The notes below the pieces were generated by a model. That model was not told the origin of the DNA and ran no database searches. It was given only the letters and a program-made list of their open reading frames with translations. A program made the position numbers and the translations under genes. From Escherichia phage vB_EcoM_WFC: a stretch of DNA of 64,000 nucleotides. Positions 15,165 to 61,050 of this stretch are shown here, piece after piece. The stretch is from sequence record NC_048195.1. One strand, given 5' to 3'. Within the stretch, counting starts at the first letter, position 1. Every line of letters begins with the position of its first letter.

Positions 15165-15632
15165 ATGATTAACGTTTCCGGTTTTGGCGCTTCGATTCGT
15201 TTGGTAGCATCAAACACTTTTCCGAATGGTGTGACTCTTTCTGATTTTGCAGATGATGCTGATCCGATTGACGCGCCGGACCTGCAAATTTCTGAGGCTG
15301 CAATGGGCCTTAACGGTGACTTAGTAGTATGGAACCGTGCAAACCCGCTTGAAGTAGGTGTGAACATCATCCCTACTTCTGAAAGTGATGTCAACTTGGA
15401 CGTTCTTGCAGCTGCAAACCGCGTAGGCAAGCGTAAGAACTCTGCAAAAGACGTGATCACACTTGTGCTGACTTATCCTTCTGGAATGGTTATCACGCTA
15501 AACAAAGGCACCTTGACAACTGGTTCAGTAATTCCTGGCATCCAGTCTCAAGGTCGTGTGAAAACACGTCAATATCGCTTCAAGTTTGAGAACGTAGTCA
15601 AAACTGGCGTGAGCAACCAAGAGATTTTATAA
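15165..15632 (+). CDS. tail tube protein (paralog 1)
   Basis: 155 aa; N-terminus MINVSGFGASIRLVA and overall pattern shared with the ORF at 16583. Confidence 0.6.
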   Translation: MINVSGFGASIRLVASNTFPNGVTLSDFADDADPIDAPDLQISEAAMGLNGDLVVWNRANPLEVGVNIIPTSESDVNLDVLAAANRVGKRKNSAKDVITLVLTYPSGMVITLNKGTLTTGSVIPGIQSQGRVKTRQYRFKFENVVKTGVSNQEIL

Positions 15633-16582: not shown

Positions 16583-17080
16583 ATGGTCAATATTAGTGGA
16601 TTTGGCACAAGCATTAGAATTGTCGCTCTTCAATCTTTTCCTGTTGGGCTGAATATCAGTTCTTTGTCTGATGACCAGGATTCGCTAATTATTGAGGAAG
16701 TTGAATCAGTAGGTTATCAACTTACTTACGACGGCGGCATTTGCATATACGACAAAGCCGCCGTCGTTCGCGTATCCATTGCGGTCATTCCAAACACTGA
16801 AGACGACATAAATCTTAAGCTTTTATTATCTGCCCGTAAAGGTGGATTCAAGTGGTTGCCAATTCAGGATGTGACATCGATGCTCATTACATATCCTGAC
16901 GGTGGAAGGGTGGCATTCTCTAACGGAACGATAATCAGCGGTCCGCTTGGCGACTCCATAGAGCAATCAGGCCGTCGCAAGACAAACCGATACACATTTG
17001 TGTTTGCCAGCTACGGTGGCGCACAGAGCACGTCTCAAATTGCCAAGGGCGTGGTGCAGAGCATATTGGGGTCCATTTAA
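16583..17080 (+). CDS. tail tube protein (paralog 2)
   Basis: 165 aa; MVNISGFGTSIRIVA and the ITYPDGG / GRRKTNRYTF segments align with the 15165 protein. Confidence 0.6.
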   Translation: MVNISGFGTSIRIVALQSFPVGLNISSLSDDQDSLIIEEVESVGYQLTYDGGICIYDKAAVVRVSIAVIPNTEDDINLKLLLSARKGGFKWLPIQDVTSMLITYPDGGRVAFSNGTIISGPLGDSIEQSGRRKTNRYTFVFASYGGAQSTSQIAKGVVQSILGSI

Positions 17081-46703: not shown

Positions 46704-47029
46704 TATAACTCCACTACGCTGTCAAGGTCCAGATATACTGGAATAAAATGGCAATCTTCTTTTCGTTCAAACATCTCACCATCAACATGGCTGAAGAAAA
46801 CAGTTGTGTTTGGTATCTTCCATCCTTTCTCGTCGCGCACTAAGTACGCCATGGATTCAACAGGGATGTACAGCGATACCGGATTTGCGGCAAAAATAAA
46901 TTTGATTCTGTCTGGTTGACCCAGGAATCGCATGATTGTTAGGCTTGAATTCAATCTTGTATTAAGGAAGGACTCAACGATTCCGACGTGTGTTGCACGT
47001 TCGCGTTGCTTCGTCTCTTTTTCGTTCAT
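46703..47029 (-). CDS. hypothetical protein (108 aa)
   Basis: First gene of the minus-strand module; start overlaps the helicase gene end. Confidence 0.45.
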   Translation of the reverse strand: MNEKETKQRERATHVGIVESFLNTRLNSSLTIMRFLGQPDRIKFIFAANPVSLYIPVESMAYLVRDEKGWKIPNTTVFFSHVDGEMFERKEDCHFIPVYLDLDSVVEL

Positions 47030-47132
47030 TTCAGGCGACCTTTGTTAGTGCGGAAATATTTTTTGATAGTATAATTGCAGATATAGTATAAAGCAAAGTA
47101 AATCGAAATTGTGAACTAAATGGTAAATATTG

Positions 47133-47160
47133 TTGACTTTGTATCACTCAATATTATACT
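47133..47160 (+). promoter_or_regulatory. sigma70-like promoter for the + strand early/replication operon
   Basis: TTGACT (47133-47138), 16-nt spacer, TATACT (47155-47160), in the divergent intergenic region 47030-47189. Confidence 0.5.
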
Positions 47161-47189
47161 GCAGGTATTGATCACCGAAGGAAAGAAAG

Positions 47190-48272
47190 ATGGCTAGTTT
47201 AAGAGAAGAAGCAAAAATAATTGAAGAGTTTTTAACAGAACTCCAAAGAGGCATTCCAGAAGATGAGCGCGTCATGACGGTGTTTGCTCCTGAAGCAACG
47301 GTACAGACCGACGAGCGCGGCAAGAAGATTAACAGCAGCTTCTGGCCTAAGCCTTGGAAGTTGGGCAAGCCGCTCATGCAGCACCAAAACGGCTATGCTT
47401 GCATCAGTTCAATGCGTAAGTCTCCCAACCCAAAGACGGGTGAGATGCGATACTGGCGTACAGAGTCTGCCTTTGGTCACGGCATGGCGATGATGGTTGA
47501 TGACATCGGTCACGGTAAAGGGTCCAAAGGTGATTTAGATTTGGAATTCTTTTTCGAGCGACTGAAGCCGACTGTCATCGTCGAGACTTCACCGAACAAC
47601 CACCAGCTTTGGTACTTCTTTAAAGAACCGATTGACCATCTTATTCAGTTCAAAGCGTTCCTTGGGTCTTTCGTTAACATGGTACTCAAGAAGGGCGGCG
47701 ACAACACGATTAAAGACGTAACGCGCGTGGGTCGTGTTCCTGGGTGCATCAATAACAAGCGTGTGACTCACGACGGCCCCTATAAATATGTCGATGAGAA
47801 CGGCGACCCGTTCCGCTGCCGACTTGTCCATGCAGACTACTCCTTGCGCTACACCATCGAAGACATTTGTCAGGCATTTGGCTTTCACGTCGTCATGCCG
47901 CAAAAGCGTGAGATTCAAATTGACGTCGATGAATACAAGTATGATGCTGTTTGGTATAAAATAGCCCAGCAGATTCTAGCGCGCAACAAGATGGGTGAAG
48001 GGTCTGATGGCGACGTCATCGAGAATATGTCAGGCAAGTGTCGCATAATCTGTCCTTGGGGTGAAGAGCACACCAACGGCGACCCGTATGGCGCTTACTT
48101 TCGCGGCCCTATCCCTGGTGCAGAACATGAATTTGTGTTCGGTTGCGCCCACGACTGCCACCGGAAAGGGGAAGGCAAGAAAGGTTGGACTGCTTTTGTT
48201 GAAGCAATCGTCATGCCTTATATTGAGAATCAACTTGACATGATAAATCGTCGTGCAGGTGGCATAAAATAG
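47190..48272 (+). CDS. DNA primase-like protein (archaeo-eukaryotic primase / Prim-Pol-like) with C-terminal Cys/His cluster
   Basis: 360 aa; acidic MMVDDIGHG and ETSPNNHQLWYFF resemble AEP motifs; C-terminal CPWGEEH ... CAHDCH zinc-binding-like cluster. Confidence 0.55.
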   Translation: MASLREEAKIIEEFLTELQRGIPEDERVMTVFAPEATVQTDERGKKINSSFWPKPWKLGKPLMQHQNGYACISSMRKSPNPKTGEMRYWRTESAFGHGMAMMVDDIGHGKGSKGDLDLEFFFERLKPTVIVETSPNNHQLWYFFKEPIDHLIQFKAFLGSFVNMVLKKGGDNTIKDVTRVGRVPGCINNKRVTHDGPYKYVDENGDPFRCRLVHADYSLRYTIEDICQAFGFHVVMPQKREIQIDVDEYKYDAVWYKIAQQILARNKMGEGSDGDVIENMSGKCRIICPWGEEHTNGDPYGAYFRGPIPGAEHEFVFGCAHDCHRKGEGKKGWTAFVEAIVMPYIENQLDMINRRAGGIK

Positions 48273-53825: not shown

Positions 53826-54061
53826 TGGAAGATTATATTAACGCGATGTATATGGCATTCTATGTCGTGCAACTTCCCAATGGCGCGGTATTTTATGGCG
53901 AGTATACCTTTGACGTTCAATACGACGTTTCAGAGCGTACAGTGTTGACAAGGGAGTTGATTGCGGACCTTAAGGACGACATCAAACGCGTCGCGCGGCA
54001 GCAGTTCAATTTGGATGACACAGTCATCGTTCGAATTACCGGAATAACAGAGGTGCAGTGA
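53822..54061 (+). CDS. hypothetical protein (79 aa)
   Basis: Start/stop overlap with neighbours. Confidence 0.45.
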   Translation: MMEDYINAMYMAFYVVQLPNGAVFYGEYTFDVQYDVSERTVLTRELIADLKDDIKRVARQQFNLDDTVIVRITGITEVQ

Positions 54062-54390
54062 TGACCCGTGATCAGATACTCGCCGCGCATGAGCGTGAGA
54101 AGGTGAAAGAGATTTGTAAAAGGCACAAATCATTTGCTGACTCTTATGTGTTCTTAAAGTCTTGCATCAAACAAAACGCAAGGATGGATAACACTGTATT
54201 GACATTCAACCTTTTGTCTAACGGAGCAAAGCTTGATGCGATATGCGGGTGCAGAATTGCCAGCATGACGTTTGAACGAGGTGCTCACAAAGACTCTTTC
54301 TTCTATCAATTCTCCCATCGGACGGGTGATACAAAGATAACAAGGACGCGGCACGAGATAGAGATTGACCTGCTCCACTATGTAAAATGA
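54058..54390 (+). CDS. hypothetical protein (110 aa)
   Basis: Start/stop overlap with neighbours. Confidence 0.45.
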   Translation: MMTRDQILAAHEREKVKEICKRHKSFADSYVFLKSCIKQNARMDNTVLTFNLLSNGAKLDAICGCRIASMTFERGAHKDSFFYQFSHRTGDTKITRTRHEIEIDLLHYVK

Positions 54391-54408
54391 ATATCAAAAA
54401 GGTGATTT

Positions 54409-54603
54409 ATGAGTGTTAAACTAGACATACAGAAAACCCTTGACAAAGCTGCTGCAATAAAGAACTTCATGGATTGTTACGCCAGTTGCACGCTTTATGG
54501 AAGCGTTCCAAACGGTGATGTGAGACCGGAAAGCATGCTTGAGTGGCTTGTTGAGCACCGTTACATAATCGACATAGTTGATGAATACATAAAGCAGAAA
54601 TGA
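54409..54603 (+). CDS. hypothetical protein (64 aa)
   Basis: AAGGTGA RBS before the ATG. Confidence 0.45.
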   Translation: MSVKLDIQKTLDKAAAIKNFMDCYASCTLYGSVPNGDVRPESMLEWLVEHRYIIDIVDEYIKQK

Positions 54604-54611
54604 ATATCAAA

Positions 54612-54656
54612 AAGGTGAGCTAAATGCTTGCCTTTTCTTTTATCAATACTTATACT
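54612..54656 (+). promoter_or_regulatory. hairpin-plus-promoter cassette (copy 1)
   Basis: Hairpin AAGGTGAGC/TAAAT/GCTTGCCTT (54612-54634) with T-run; TTGCCT (54628-54633), 17-nt spacer, TATACT (54651-54656). Confidence 0.45.
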
Positions 54657-54688
54657 CTTTTCATCAAGACGAACAAGTGAGGTGAATT

Positions 54689-55006
54689 ATGATTTACTTA
54701 GGAATGGACGAAGATGCGCACAAAGACCTTTCAAGGGTGCCAAACGTTAAGTTAGACACAGCTGTACACATCAAGCCTTGGCCAATCGCCCACCCTGACG
54801 TAGTTGTACCAGTCGCGCCTGGCACGCGTTACGTGGCCATTGATGACGACGGAGTAATTCACTGTTATTCGGAAAAACCAAAGTATATAAAGCAATATCA
54901 CGGTTGGTTTTTGGACGAGCGTGCAATGGCGCGTTACTGCGGCGAAGTCGGTCTGGAAGGTTGGAGCTTCAAGGCTAGTGAATCGTGTGTCGAGGTGCAA
55001 TTATGA
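54689..55006 (+). CDS. hypothetical protein (105 aa)
   Basis: GTGAGGTGA RBS; early array. Confidence 0.45.
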   Translation: MIYLGMDEDAHKDLSRVPNVKLDTAVHIKPWPIAHPDVVVPVAPGTRYVAIDDDGVIHCYSEKPKYIKQYHGWFLDERAMARYCGEVGLEGWSFKASESCVEVQL

Positions 55007-55221
55007 ATGCCGCGCTGGGTAAGTTGTCTTTCAATAAACGCAACGAGCTGCGCATGGTGTCGCGCTTTCAACAAACGTATTCATCACTAATAAAGATTAC
55101 AAATAAGGCCGACTCTAGAGCTTGCCCTAAAGAAGAATGGGAAGCATTGAACGAGCGTCGTAAACAATTACAACATGCTGCATTCAAGCTGCAGCAATAT
55201 GCTATGGAGTATGCAAAATGA
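55003..55221 (+). CDS. hypothetical protein (72 aa)
   Basis: ATG 55003 preceded by GAGGTG. Confidence 0.4.
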   Translation: MNAALGKLSFNKRNELRMVSRFQQTYSSLIKITNKADSRACPKEEWEALNERRKQLQHAAFKLQQYAMEYAK

Positions 55222-55502
55222 AGATGCAAAGATGTCCCCATTGCTTGTCCACGATGCGGCTTACTGCTGAAGAATATTTACATCACGTTAACGTTTGTGA
55301 GGCTAATCCTGAAAACTCGACGCGTTACTATTATCATTATCACGCAGAAGCGGAAGATGGATCAGGCGCAACAGGCATCGTCACCACTAAAGAAATGGTG
55401 ATAACTAAAAAGGCATATGAAAGCTTGCTGGAGACGATTAAAGAAGTTTCTGGCAAAGAAATCACCTGTATTAAATCTTTATCTTTCTTGCACGAGGTAT
55501 AA
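55218..55502 (+). CDS. small Cys/His zinc-finger-like protein (paralog a)
   Basis: 94 aa; N-terminus MKMQRCPHCLSTMRLTAEEYLHHVNVCEANPENS. Confidence 0.45.
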   Translation: MKMQRCPHCLSTMRLTAEEYLHHVNVCEANPENSTRYYYHYHAEAEDGSGATGIVTTKEMVITKKAYESLLETIKEVSGKEITCIKSLSFLHEV

Positions 55503-55503
55503 A

Positions 55504-55887
55504 ATGAGAATGAAGCGTTGCCCTTACTGCCACGATGTGGTGCACCTTCCACACGAAGAGTTTGTGCACCACATGACTAACTGTGATAAGAATCCTAATA
55601 GCGAAAGCCAACTTGAAGAAAGAATGTTCTTGGTGTCATTCAAAGCTTCTGCTTATGAAGTGCAACGTTCTTACGGCGCACCAAGTACGATTTACTGTCC
55701 AACAACATTGAGAAGCGACATCGACTCAATTCAGCTTGCGGCCTGGATTAACGTTAAGGAAGGAATCACGCCGCACTTTATTGCGCGCATCCAATCTCAG
55801 ATTCTACAAATCAAGCGCGAATACAACCGTGACATCACTGAAGTGAAGGTGTTGTCTATCACACCGATGAATAAGGAGTTGCCGTGA
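55504..55887 (+). CDS. small Cys/His zinc-finger-like protein (paralog b)
   Basis: 127 aa from ATG 55504; N-terminus MRMKRCPYCHDVVHLPHEEFVHHMTNCDKNPNSES matches the adjacent paralog. Confidence 0.45.
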   Translation: MRMKRCPYCHDVVHLPHEEFVHHMTNCDKNPNSESQLEERMFLVSFKASAYEVQRSYGAPSTIYCPTTLRSDIDSIQLAAWINVKEGITPHFIARIQSQILQIKREYNRDITEVKVLSITPMNKELP

Positions 55888-56144
55888 ACAAGGGTCCGAT
55901 GACTAAGTTAGCCGTTGCCGCGCGGAAGCTTCGACAAGCCGTTAATGGGTCGCGGCCCGTGGTGTTAACACTCGACGATGCAAAGGCACTGGTAGAGCTA
56001 CTCGACGAGCACAACCGACGCAAGAATCTGGAGAACACATTACGCTGGCGCGTTACTCCGAAAGGGCGGGAGAGCGAGAAGAAAGCTTACTTGCGACGCA
56101 AACTAAGGTCAGTCGGCCTCCACGAAGAGGCGAAGAATATTTAA
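55884..56144 (+). CDS. hypothetical protein (86 aa)
   Basis: GTG start preceded by AAGGAG. Confidence 0.4.
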   Translation: MNKGPMTKLAVAARKLRQAVNGSRPVVLTLDDAKALVELLDEHNRRKNLENTLRWRVTPKGRESEKKAYLRRKLRSVGLHEEAKNI

Positions 56145-56150
56145 TTCAAA

Positions 56151-56194
56151 AAGGTGAGCTAAATGCTTGCCTTTTTATTTGCCTGTATTATACT
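56151..56194 (+). promoter_or_regulatory. hairpin-plus-promoter cassette (copy 2)
   Basis: Same hairpin as copy 1 (56151-56173); TTGCCT (56167-56172), 16-nt spacer, TATACT (56189-56194). Confidence 0.45.
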
Positions 56195-56215
56195 TAGTTC
56201 ATCAAGCAAAGGAGA

Positions 56216-56524
56216 ATGATTATGAGTTACGACGAAAGGTTTGGCAGAAGCGGATTATTTCATGACGCTGTACACAAAGACAGCAAAGATGTTGTCTGCG
56301 CATTCAAGGTTGATTCTTACGGTACACTGAAACCTTTTAAGGTCGGCGAAACATACAAGCTGTTTCACGGCTGGTTGACGCGTCGCAACAACTTGCCTGA
56401 CATGGAAGTCTGGTGGATAGAATACAAGGGTCAGGCTCATCGTTGCAAGGTTGTAGAGGTGCGCGGCGTGGAATACTATCAATCTGTTATCAGCGGCTTT
56501 GTTTTTAAAGAGGGTGAGCTATGA
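56216..56524 (+). CDS. hypothetical protein (102 aa)
   Basis: AAGGAG RBS; early array. Confidence 0.45.
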   Translation: MIMSYDERFGRSGLFHDAVHKDSKDVVCAFKVDSYGTLKPFKVGETYKLFHGWLTRRNNLPDMEVWWIEYKGQAHRCKVVEVRGVEYYQSVISGFVFKEGEL

Positions 56525-56826
56525 GTACAGAAGCGATGAAGAAAAAGATTTTGAACGCTTTGCAAGAAGCCGTGAACTGTGGTGCAATTAAAACCTTTAC
56601 TGAAAGGCAAGTCGGTGAGGTGACGGTGCACGGATTCAATAATAACAAAAACGGAATTGCTGCCATAATGCTGTTGAAGAACAGCGATGACACATTCATC
56701 ATTTACGTCGGCGGATATGAGCTTATCGTTGATGATTTGTTCATCACTTGCGCTGACGGCCTTAACCCAATGTTAACGTTCGAGCGGCGCGGCATCCGTG
56801 TTGCAACGTTTGGAGGGAAGTTATGA
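56521..56826 (+). CDS. hypothetical protein (101 aa)
   Basis: AGGGTGAG RBS; N-terminal AVNCGAI segment shared with the 57004 protein. Confidence 0.45.
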   Translation: MSTEAMKKKILNALQEAVNCGAIKTFTERQVGEVTVHGFNNNKNGIAAIMLLKNSDDTFIIYVGGYELIVDDLFITCADGLNPMLTFERRGIRVATFGGKL

Positions 56827-56987
56827 CATCAAATCTTAAAGCCCGTTTATTATTCATCAAGCCGCATGTGCCGTATAAGATTAGTAAGCGCACCTGGCTT
56901 AACATTTACAACCGCAGCGGCGACCGTTGTTTGTACAAGGCAAAGCGGCGCAAGAAGGTATATTCTTACACAACATCAATCAAATAA
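56823..56987 (+). CDS. small basic protein (54 aa)
   Basis: ATGA coupling with the upstream stop; Lys/Arg-rich. Confidence 0.35.
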   Translation: MTSNLKARLLFIKPHVPYKISKRTWLNIYNRSGDRCLYKAKRRKKVYSYTTSIK

Positions 56988-57003
56988 ATAGGATAAGACA
57001 ACA

Positions 57004-57507
57004 ATGAAAATCGAACAACTCGAAGCAGTACTGGAAATGGCTGTAAAGGCTGGCGCAATCAGAAGCTATAGCCGCGAGAAGTCGGAAAACGATATGGTGT
57101 TTTGTCGCAACTTCTATATCGTCGGCAACCTTAACGACCACTACACCATCGAGTGGTATATTAACATGATGACGCTTAAGTCGCGCACCATGGAGCTTTG
57201 GTGCGATGACATTTGCTTATCCAACACCCATCCATCCTACGACGTTGCATTGGCATTCTATTACGGAAGCCGTCAACCTGTCGCCCACATCGGTGAGAAG
57301 CATGAGCATCTTAAGGCGCGACCAGAGGAATCAATGGAAGGCTGGATTGAATGGGCTGGAGGAAAGAATCCGGTGCCTGGTAAGAAGGTCATGTTGATGT
57401 GGAGGAATGAAGAAAAGTCGTCGTATTCGTCCAATTCAGAGGGATGGCTATGGCATCACAACGGAAGCGTTTATGACATCATAAAGTATCGCGTCGTGGA
57501 GGAATGA
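57004..57507 (+). CDS. hypothetical protein (167 aa) with C-terminal WxGGxNPVPGK module
   Basis: C-terminal EGWIEWAGGKNPVPGKKV ... YRVVEE shared with the 58791 protein. Confidence 0.45.
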   Translation: MKIEQLEAVLEMAVKAGAIRSYSREKSENDMVFCRNFYIVGNLNDHYTIEWYINMMTLKSRTMELWCDDICLSNTHPSYDVALAFYYGSRQPVAHIGEKHEHLKARPEESMEGWIEWAGGKNPVPGKKVMLMWRNEEKSSYSSNSEGWLWHHNGSVYDIIKYRVVEE

Positions 57508-58579: not shown

Positions 58580-58794
58580 CCGATAAACAATACGCAGTCG
58601 GGCAACGTGACATCGAGCAACTCGACGAGGGCGGCTATTATACTCGCCACATCTATGCAATGACGCATGAAGGACTCTACAGCAAGTCGGACATTGCCGC
58701 TGAACTGGCCCATCGTGACTTGCAAATTGACCTTCTCAAGATAGAAGTGCAAAACTTACGCAACACCCTGTTAAATACCTGGAGCTTAAAATGA
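58576..58794 (+). CDS. hypothetical protein (72 aa)
   Basis: GAAGGTG RBS. Confidence 0.45.
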   Translation: MTDKQYAVGQRDIEQLDEGGYYTRHIYAMTHEGLYSKSDIAAELAHRDLQIDLLKIEVQNLRNTLLNTWSLK

Positions 58795-59192
58795 TCAATC
58801 GATTTAACTGCATCGTCAACAAGGGGATGGCGGTCAATGAGGATGGTCCTTGGATTCACTATGAGGACTATGAATCACTGCTCAAGCTTAATGAGTCGCT
58901 AACAAAAGAGATTGAGCAATACCGCGAGCGCATCAAAGCCGCTGAAGATGTTATCAAGCTTTTTAGCGAGGCTGTTGAGAAATACAAGGAGCGCAACGTA
59001 CCGATTAAGGAGGAAGCGTGGACCGTGTGGTTTGGTGGTGAGAATCCGGTGCCTGGGAAGATGGTTGAGTTTGAATTACTCAACGGTTATAAATCAAAAG
59101 GTGCTGTTCCTTCGGATAGTTTGACATGGGATAAAGTCACAAGCCCGACTGGTGCAAAGATTGTTGCTTATCGGGTCGTTAAGGAGGGGTGA
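58791..59192 (+). CDS. hypothetical protein (133 aa) with C-terminal WxGGxNPVPGK module
   Basis: GGAG RBS; C-terminal WTVWFGGENPVPGKMV ... YRVVKEG. Confidence 0.45.
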   Translation: MINRFNCIVNKGMAVNEDGPWIHYEDYESLLKLNESLTKEIEQYRERIKAAEDVIKLFSEAVEKYKERNVPIKEEAWTVWFGGENPVPGKMVEFELLNGYKSKGAVPSDSLTWDKVTSPTGAKIVAYRVVKEG

Positions 59193-59725: not shown

Positions 59726-60017
59726 AGAACGTTGATTTGTGTGTTTTGAAGAATGGAATGTGTGCAATGGGTCGCTTTATGCGGCCTTTTGTTGTTTGGG
59801 TCGTGTTTTGCGATGGAATAATTATGAGGTTGTGTTTTATTTATTAATTGTGCGGAAATATTTAGAAATATATATAAACAGGATTGTTAATATTTTAATA
59901 GTGTATGGCTATTGGTCCGTGGTGTTCGTTAGATTCTATCTATGGATTGGATTTTCTTGGGTCGTGAAACGTGGTTTTGAACACATTTGATACGCCTAAA
60001 ATACGGTTAAAAATTAA

Positions 60018-60347
60018 GCGTATCATGGCTGCAGGCCGCGCCGTTCCTGGATTCCTATTTTCAAAAGTGGTACACCCTTACGTCATGATACGTCATGGTT
60101 TTCTATCCGTAAGAGTGTACAGCCCTTGCCGCGCCTGGCTTGTACATTAATCTTACGGATGATACGGATAAAACTGAGCATCGTTATATATAGAATTCGA
60201 AAAATTAATTAACTCCATTTTAAAAACATTTATATTAATTTTTTTCATATCCTCATACTTATGTTAATTTATATATTTAACGTATTATCCGTAAGATATA
60301 AGTAAAAACAAAGACTTGCGGCAATACGGATGATACGTCATGATACG
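60018..60347. repeat. iteron-like TACGGATGATACG repeats flanking an AT-rich core (region B)
   Basis: CGTCATGATACGTCATG (about 60080-60097), CTTACGGATGATACGGATA (60152-60170), ATCCGTAAG copies near 60104 and 60287, AATACGGATGATACGTCATGATACG (60323-60347); AT-rich core 60180-60280. Confidence 0.6.
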
Positions 60348-60512
60348 CTTCGACCAGCCAGCAGCGGCTAAGTCATTGATTTGCATAACAAGCGGCAAAA
60401 GGGATGGATTTCTTTTATACGTATCAAACAGTACACCACGCACCACGGTCCGCAATCCACGCAGCATTATGATTTGTGTACTTTTATAGCCATAATGAAC
60501 ATCAATCTGCAC

Positions 60513-60541
60513 TTGAATATAATGTCCATCCATTGTATAAT
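60513..60541 (+). promoter_or_regulatory. sigma70-like promoter upstream of the TerS-like gene
   Basis: TTGAAT (60513-60518), 17-nt spacer, TATAAT (60536-60541). Confidence 0.45.
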
Positions 60542-60561
60542 TCACACTATTAATTTGCACT

Positions 60562-61050
60562 ATGGGATTTTGCACTATGAGTCAAGATTATGTAGCGATG
60601 CCTGAAGACTTTGAAGACCCGCGATTCGCAGAGCACAATCAGGCTTTATTCGATGAGTTCATTGACCTTGTTATTCAGGGCCATGACATGCGCGCAGCTT
60701 TTGCACTAGTATTTGGAATGGAAGTTGCAACGGATAACTACACTGGCCAGCGAATCCTTTGCACGCAACGCAATCCATACTACAAGATGCGCTTCAAAAA
60801 GCGTATGGAAGAGATGCCACTCAAGGATTTGTGGAGCGTAAAAGGTGCAATTCACAATTTGGTCAAGCTTGTGCGTGATCCAGAAGTCGCGGCGTCAGCC
60901 AAGCTTAATGCTATTCGTGAACTGAATATCATCTACGGCATCACGATGATTGATGAAAACGGCAATAGTAAAATGGGCCGTTCCATGGACGATTTCTACA
61001 AGGATTTCGGAGAGGCGGCCAAAGAAGGCGAGCAATTTTCCCGCCACTAG
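60562..61050 (+). CDS. putative terminase small subunit (HTH-type)
   Basis: 162 aa; GHDMRAAFALVFGME ... QRILCTQRNPYYKMRFKKRMEE and later KLNAIRELNIIYGI resemble small-terminase patterns from memory; alternative ATG at 60577. Confidence 0.45.
   Translation: MGFCTMSQDYVAMPEDFEDPRFAEHNQALFDEFIDLVIQGHDMRAAFALVFGMEVATDNYTGQRILCTQRNPYYKMRFKKRMEEMPLKDLWSVKGAIHNLVKLVRDPEVAASAKLNAIRELNIIYGITMIDENGNSKMGRSMDDFYKDFGEAAKEGEQFSRH

Follow-up and report, generated by a model that had tools for sequence, protein, structure and literature searches.

Phage zinc-binding proteins made of one small module include Ogr/Delta of P2/P4 and Com of Mu, which act via RNA polymerase or mRNA binding through Cys4 modules. 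Fingers of another type, in which a CPxC knuckle lies in a beta-hairpin and a His-x3-Cys pair ends a short helix, are found in the Gn tail of Crimean-Congo haemorrhagic fever virus (CCHFV; a CCHC finger, PDB 2L7X), in GTSF1 (CHHC, 6X46) and in the CEP104 ZnF. The beta-beta-alpha finger class as a whole is best known for nucleic-acid binding. Separately, T7 Gp2 (2WNM/2LMC), phi29/VMY22 p56 (2LE2/8AIL) and T4 Dmd (5HY3) are small phage inhibitors built from a three-stranded sheet and one helix. Here we describe two adjacent genes of Escherichia phage vB_EcoM_WFC, ORF A (open reading frame A; 55218-55502, plus strand, 94 aa) and ORF B (55504-55887, plus strand, 127 aa), in the 64,000-nt stretch of record NC_048195.1 that was analysed as a whole, hereafter the window. 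A and B are paralogs through an N-terminal module that carries four invariant candidate zinc ligands, and both genes are under purifying selection. In each predicted structure, this module is followed by a compact beta-beta-alpha-beta domain.

An N-terminal finger module in both paralogs

The initial annotation described A and B as tandem paralogs that share a conserved C-x2-C...HH...C arrangement and then diverge. The paralogy holds for the N-terminal module, residues 1-36 of each protein (55218-55325 in A and 55504-55611 in B, plus strand). BLASTP aligned A and B with 14 identities over 36 residues (E 1e-10), limited to this module, while comparison of the two ortholog profiles with hhalign gave a probability of 97.4% (E 1e-11) across residues 1-35 and no match past them. 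In six-frame translation, the window contains exactly two instances of the strict pattern C-x2-C-x12-H-x4-C, at the N-termini of A and B; shuffled sequence gives an expectation of 0.01 per window.

Six residues, C6, C9, L15, H23, C27 and P31, are invariant in 30 B and 6 A sequences. A third finger allele (P0029) keeps C6, P7, C9, H23, C27 and P31, as does a distantly related metagenomic protein (P0034), in which L15 falls in an alignment gap and the spacing is shorter (C-x2-C-x11-H-x3-C). Every homolog found thus has the four candidate ligands unchanged, contrary to the loss of Cys/His conservation that the initial annotation named as its refutation. The first His of its "HH" is less constant: most B orthologs have Q, N, D or R there, so we take the ligand set to be C-x2-C-x13-H-x3-C (C6, C9, H23 and C27). 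The core-like positions of the module are L15 with Y20 in A and L15 with F20 in B, and an aromatic F/Y20 is conserved throughout, three residues ahead of H23. Both paralogs carry a basic M-[KR]-M-x-R stretch before the first Cys.

AlphaFold2 models were of moderate quality, with a mean pLDDT (predicted local distance difference test) of 68 for B from 30 sequences and 72.5 for A from 3 sequences. The finger is the best-modelled part of B (pLDDT 81-88), with strands 4-5 and 12-13 around the CPxC knuckle, a helix at 17-25 that bears H23, and C27 just past the helix. As modelled, this arrangement is classical beta-beta-alpha. For the A finger, the helix at 17-27 alone was predicted, at low confidence (pLDDT 53-65). 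Compared with the classical finger, in which C-x2-C sits in the hairpin and the remaining ligands at the C-terminal end of the helix, the invariant C6-P-x-C9 lies between the two predicted strands of B and the invariant H23-x3-C27 lies at the end of the predicted helix in both proteins. A and B have 13 residues between the second Cys and the His, one more than the classical finger (12), and P0034 has 11.

The fingers of 2L7X, 6X46 and CEP104 share with A and B the CPxC knuckle in a beta-hairpin, the His-x3-Cys that ends a short helix, a core-like hydrophobic residue three before the His (F/Y20 in A and B) and another in the hairpin (L15). The 2L7X finger reads CPYCasrLTsdgLarHVtqC against CPYChdvmhLpheeFvqHMtnC here, with a Cys-to-His spacer of 11 rather than 13. 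Unlike these fingers, that of A and B is single, lies right at the N-terminus of a phage protein and is fused to a predicted beta-beta-alpha-beta domain. Neither B nor a finger-only profile had a significant match when searched against PDB sequences; the finger matches had E-values of 0.09-3.8, among them the CCHFV Gn tail (E 0.097) and GTSF1 (E 0.091).

No match above cutoff was obtained in Pfam, PHROG, NCBIfam or PADLOC for the full proteins, the isolated fingers or the isolated C-terminal domains, and no family of NCBIfam or PADLOC (known anti-phage defence proteins) matched either protein at E up to 1. The finger did give consistent sub-threshold matches to fingers of the beta-beta-alpha type, which support a structural class for this sequence and no family membership. 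In Pfam, zf-Di19, ZNF598 C2H2, CEP104_ZnF and zf-U11-48K scored 11-17 bits against cutoffs of 21-27.5. DUF7501 (PF24333) was the most consistent of the finger matches, at model positions 10-34 of 58 with a best E-value of 2e-4, but the match is limited to the finger, the family is itself without known function, and its gathering cutoff of 27 bits was missed by P0029 (21.8, the best), the consensus B finger (20.2), full B (16.4) and the A finger (13.2). The A finger also weakly matched Ogr/Delta (PF04606; E 0.05), with 13.9 bits against a 26.3-bit cutoff and through the first knuckle alone; the ligands of A and B are Cys2-His-Cys. For ubiquitin-binding CCHC fingers (UBZ4/NEMO), which resemble A and B in ligand pattern alone, no Pfam model came up even when E-values as high as 10 were allowed, and the host is without ubiquitin. 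The best PHROG matches, none significant, were phrog_29890 for the C-terminal domain of A (E 0.06-0.18) and phrog_15137, labelled endonuclease, for the B finger (E 0.026-0.08).

C-terminal domains and a possible binding role

The predicted C-terminal domain of A (55326-55499, plus strand) has strands at 37-45 and 50-57, a helix at 64-78 and a strand at 82-93. In B (55612-55884, plus strand; pLDDT 47-79), the corresponding elements are strands at 39-52 and 68-83, a helix at 90-107 and a strand at 110-121. The first two B strands form a long hairpin, the tip of which (residues 53-68; 55660-55707, plus strand) is a variable, indel-rich loop modelled with low confidence (pLDDT <50 for residues 54-66). 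The divergence noted in the initial annotation is thus true of the sequences, yet the models keep the same beta-beta-alpha-beta order. Profiles of the C-terminal domains alone did not match significantly between A and B (hhalign probability 0.9%). A Smith-Waterman comparison against shuffles was marginal (p 0.043); the best local alignment pairs ...IKEVSGKEITCIKSLS in A with ...IKREYNRDITEVKVLS in B, and its register agrees, to within one residue, with where the helix is predicted to end and the third strand to begin. We infer that the whole two-domain architecture is probably common to A and B, with C-terminal domains that would have diverged beyond sequence recognition.

Foldseek matched the C-terminal domain of A to many uncharacterised phage proteins of 55-75 aa, and the C-terminal domains have no match more specific than a very common small fold. 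T7 Gp2 and phi29 p56, both of which inhibit host proteins, were among the low-Z structural matches common to the A and B lists. We treat this likeness as resemblance and not as a sign of homology; neither structural nor sequence similarity to Gp2 was significant, and A and B do not group with Gp2-like RNA polymerase inhibitors.

Neither A nor B was found to hold a catalytic domain or motif. Because of this, together with their small size and their combination of a putatively zinc-stabilised module with a compact domain, A and B would act stoichiometrically as binding proteins. The explanation that we favour, tentatively and at somewhat less than even chances, is that they are small non-catalytic proteins of this kind, expressed from a host-type promoter and acting, in early infection, on a protein of the host or of the phage. 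Each paralog would consist of a single N-terminal zinc-finger-like beta-beta-alpha module and a beta-beta-alpha-beta domain. The conserved finger would then serve as a fold or docking element common to both, while the C-terminal domains, unrelated in sequence, and the variable hairpin tip of B would give each paralog a separate specificity. The likeliest target would be a host or phage protein involved in host takeover or counter-defence. We favour a protein target because A and B are neutral to acidic (net charge -3 and 0 for the two proteins) and because the conserved Glu18/Glu19 occupy the base-contact positions of classical fingers.

These same features bear on the main alternative, in which A and B are nucleic-acid-binding regulators whose CCHC finger and basic N-terminus bind phage or host RNA or DNA and control the early-to-middle switch, a role analogous to that of the phage zinc-finger regulators Mu Com and P2 Ogr. 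The finger class itself speaks for such a role, and the nearest PDB matches, although non-significant, were the CCHFV Gn tail and GTSF1 fingers, both of which are reported to bind RNA. The basic stretch before the first Cys in both paralogs, and the weak matches to Ogr/Delta and to the PHROG labelled endonuclease, also fit. However, the overall charge and the conserved Glu-Glu pair on the side of the finger helix used for recognition are unfavourable to nucleic-acid contact, every family match fell under its curated cutoff, and a single finger without basic flanks seldom binds specifically. The Cys4 pattern of Ogr/Delta and Com is also unlike the ligands of A and B, in spacing as well as in residues. 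We consider a regulatory role of this kind rather unlikely, at about one chance in four.

Distribution, selection and the accessory paralog

The window belongs to the genus Wifcevirus, myophages of E. coli and Shigella with genomes of ~68 kb. Megablast of positions 54000-57500 matched exclusively Wifcevirus records, with vB_EcoM_WFH as the top match at 93.7% identity. B was found by tblastn in all 27 of the 27 Wifcevirus records in the phage collection at 70.6-98.4% identity, the lowest values being joined A+B matches. Full-length A was present in 11 Wifcevirus records, representing ~8 distinct phages. Genomes with and without A differ by exactly one gene, a unit of 286 nt: in phages that lack A, the 72-aa upstream gene overlaps the start of B in the context ...ggagtatgcaaaATGA, the same as its overlap with A in phages that have both. 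We read B as the genus-core function and A as an accessory copy that comes and goes as precisely one gene.

Orthologs of both genes are annotated as coding sequences in relatives, always under the product name hypothetical protein. The N-termini quoted in the initial annotation were both found on the plus strand of the window. A program-made list of reading frames puts the start of B at 55417; we take the ATG at 55504 as the start because all relatives, phages without A included, begin at MRMKRCPYC. The stop codon of A (TAA, 55500-55502) is separated by one base from this ATG, and B stops at 55885-55887. Shine-Dalgarno sites precede both genes on the plus strand, GGAG at 55206-55209, 8 nt upstream of the A start, and GAGG at 55494-55497, 6 nt upstream of the B start. 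In the FEC19 record MH816966 (locus L008, 1215-1884), the deposited coding sequences 1251-1499 and 1537-1884 begin past the first Cys pair, so the zinc-finger module is truncated in these entries.

Codon analysis gave a ratio of nonsynonymous to synonymous substitution rates (dN/dS) of 0.05 for the whole A gene, with a dS of 0.44, and of 0.13-0.16 for the whole B gene, with a dS of ~0.5. The B finger, excluding one allele described below, had a dN/dS of 0.04 (dS 0.69). The hairpin tip of B (residues 53-68) was the sole relaxed segment, at 0.37-0.41 with a dS of ~0.6, still below 1. Since purifying selection is strong on a background of substantial synonymous divergence, we conclude that both genes are real and constrained. 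The term diversifying, used in the initial annotation, does not suit orthologs with such ratios. Judged by their Shine-Dalgarno sites and strong purifying selection, both genes also look expressed.

It could be argued that B is the functional gene and that A is redundant, having been recently duplicated or horizontally inserted, with no distinct role, and is now being lost. About two thirds of Wifcevirus genomes lack A, with precisely one gene missing and B in its place, and the published phenotypes, the only relevant published data on the host-factor binding or anti-defence role that the initial annotation called plausible, do not separate carriers from non-carriers: Bas98, in which A is present, and Bas99-101, in which it is absent, are all resistant to every defence system tested in the BASEL panel except EcoP1_I (PMC11990801). 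No phenotype can be attributed to A because this resistance is the same in both groups. However, A is more constrained than B and its copies all share protein identities of 91% or higher, with its own Shine-Dalgarno site and an intact frame in every carrier. The A finger is also ~52% identical to the B finger in nucleotides, so the duplication is old. We regard redundancy of A as improbable.

One phage that also carries A (L012) has an unusual B finger. Over ~100 nt coding for the finger, nucleotide identity drops to 53-63%, with flanks at 83-100%; the patch (3001-3110 in L012) corresponds to 55513-55602 in the window. A second patch, at 27-53% identity, corresponds to 55063-55152, within the 72-aa upstream gene. 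From the sequence, the L012 finger is a mosaic replacement by the third finger allele (P0029), and the sharp patches indicate short-patch allele replacement in the A/B region. Recent gene conversion between A and B was rejected as the source, since the allele is only ~54-57% identical to either finger in nucleotides.

That the Cys/His pattern arose by chance in frames that are spurious or do not code, a reading suggested by nothing other than the small size of the genes and the lack of a database family, is refuted by the paralog E-values (1e-10 to 1e-11), the rarity of the motif, the annotation of both genes in relatives, the strong purifying selection amid many synonymous changes, and the Shine-Dalgarno sites and translational coupling at both genes, and we give it almost no weight.

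Beyond the genus, relatives are very scarce. A word-seeded search of 5.8 billion proteins matched A and B to Wifcevirus orthologs alone, on Wifcevirus-sized contigs; IMG/VR held no copies beyond wifceviruses; and 185,579 species-representative genomes of bacteria and archaea yielded no host or prophage copies. Among 1.84 billion cluster representatives searched exhaustively with hmmsearch, there was one credible outside homolog, P0034, a Lys-rich protein of 161 aa (L010 1288-1773, metagenome contig ERZ23498500 scaffold_92341). Its alignment with B spans 99 columns, which take in the finger and the greater part of the C-terminal domain, at 96.8% probability. Its 3 kb contig has 26-31% GC content and no recognisable neighbour genes, and P0034 has no IMG/VR relatives. 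A profile search with B and P0034 added nothing significant (P0035 at E 0.12). P0033 was rejected as a homolog, being a 13-repeat adhesin-like protein with a score summed over its repeats. By these searches, A and B form a new family, restricted almost wholly to Wifcevirus, that reuses a known finger type.

Transcription unit and significance for Wifcevirus

A and B lie within a five-gene unit on the plus strand (54689-56144). Upstream are a 105-aa gene (54689-55006; phrog_1972, of unknown function) and the gene of ~72 aa (55003-55221), the stop of which overlaps the A start in ATGA; downstream, an 86-aa gene (55884-56144) has a GTG start that overlaps the B stop in GTGA. Two identical copies of a 27-nt hairpin, AAAAGGTGAGCTAAATGCTTGCCTTTT, bracket the unit, where none is expected by chance. 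The upstream copy, with TTGCCT-N17-TATACT, lies at 54610-54656, where the unit begins, and the downstream copy, with TTGCCT-N16-TATACT, lies at 56149-56194, where it ends and the next unit begins, both on the plus strand. In each, the -35-like TTGCCT lies inside the 3' arm of the hairpin, with TATACT 16-17 nt downstream. Terminators are annotated at both hairpin places in the WFH record. The element looks like a terminator/promoter cassette reused between transcription units of the small-gene block, and A and B would be co-transcribed from its sigma-70-like promoter.

The unit sits in a long plus-strand block of small genes of unknown function, and the neighbouring genes gave no functional context for A or B. 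Because the promoter is sigma-70-like, hence of host type, and the unit lies within this block, early expression of A and B is plausible. In the literature on Wifcevirus and vB_Eco4M-7 we found no expression or functional data for A or B; the mass spectrometry there covers proteins of the phage lysate and is uninformative for early proteins.

Several other features of the window were observed. The intergenic region 47030-47190, between a minus-strand frame ending at 47029 and the plus-strand small-gene block, holds a near-consensus sigma-70-like TTGACT-N16-TATACT that faces the block; the main early promoter region is probably here. At 59990-60562, 570 nt of AT-rich non-coding sequence carry iteron-like direct repeats (TACGGATGATACG, TACGTCATGATACG and TATCCGTAAGA, two copies each), an AT-rich palindrome (60200-60243) and, at 60496-60541, strong promoter-like sites; this stretch is a candidate replication origin or regulatory hub. 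All-vs-all BLASTP found another paralog pair in the small-gene block, 57004-57507 and 58791-59192 (41% over 58 aa, E 6e-7), and a further pair outside it, 15165-15632 and 16583-17080 (33% over 141 aa, E 1e-25).

According to published work (PMC11990801), Wifcevirus phages show unusually fast replication and withstand almost every restriction-modification and defence system tested, with no genome protection known. It is a long shot, to which we give little credence, that B is a new zinc-finger factor of host takeover or counter-defence that helps explain this resistance or fast replication, that A is an accessory variant aiming the finger scaffold at a second target, and that the finger is swapped between phages as a ~100-nt cassette under host pressure.

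To our knowledge, descriptions of classical-type Cys2-His-Cys fingers from bacteriophages are rare. In Wifcevirus, a finger of this type stands at the head of both a genus-core protein and its accessory paralog, within the unexplored small-gene block, and at present the pair represents a well-defined family with a proposed binding role. Natural BASEL phages with and without A, which grow on engineered variants of E. coli K-12, make the idea of host binding directly testable. If A and B bind a host factor, they would represent a new small-protein scaffold for host manipulation.
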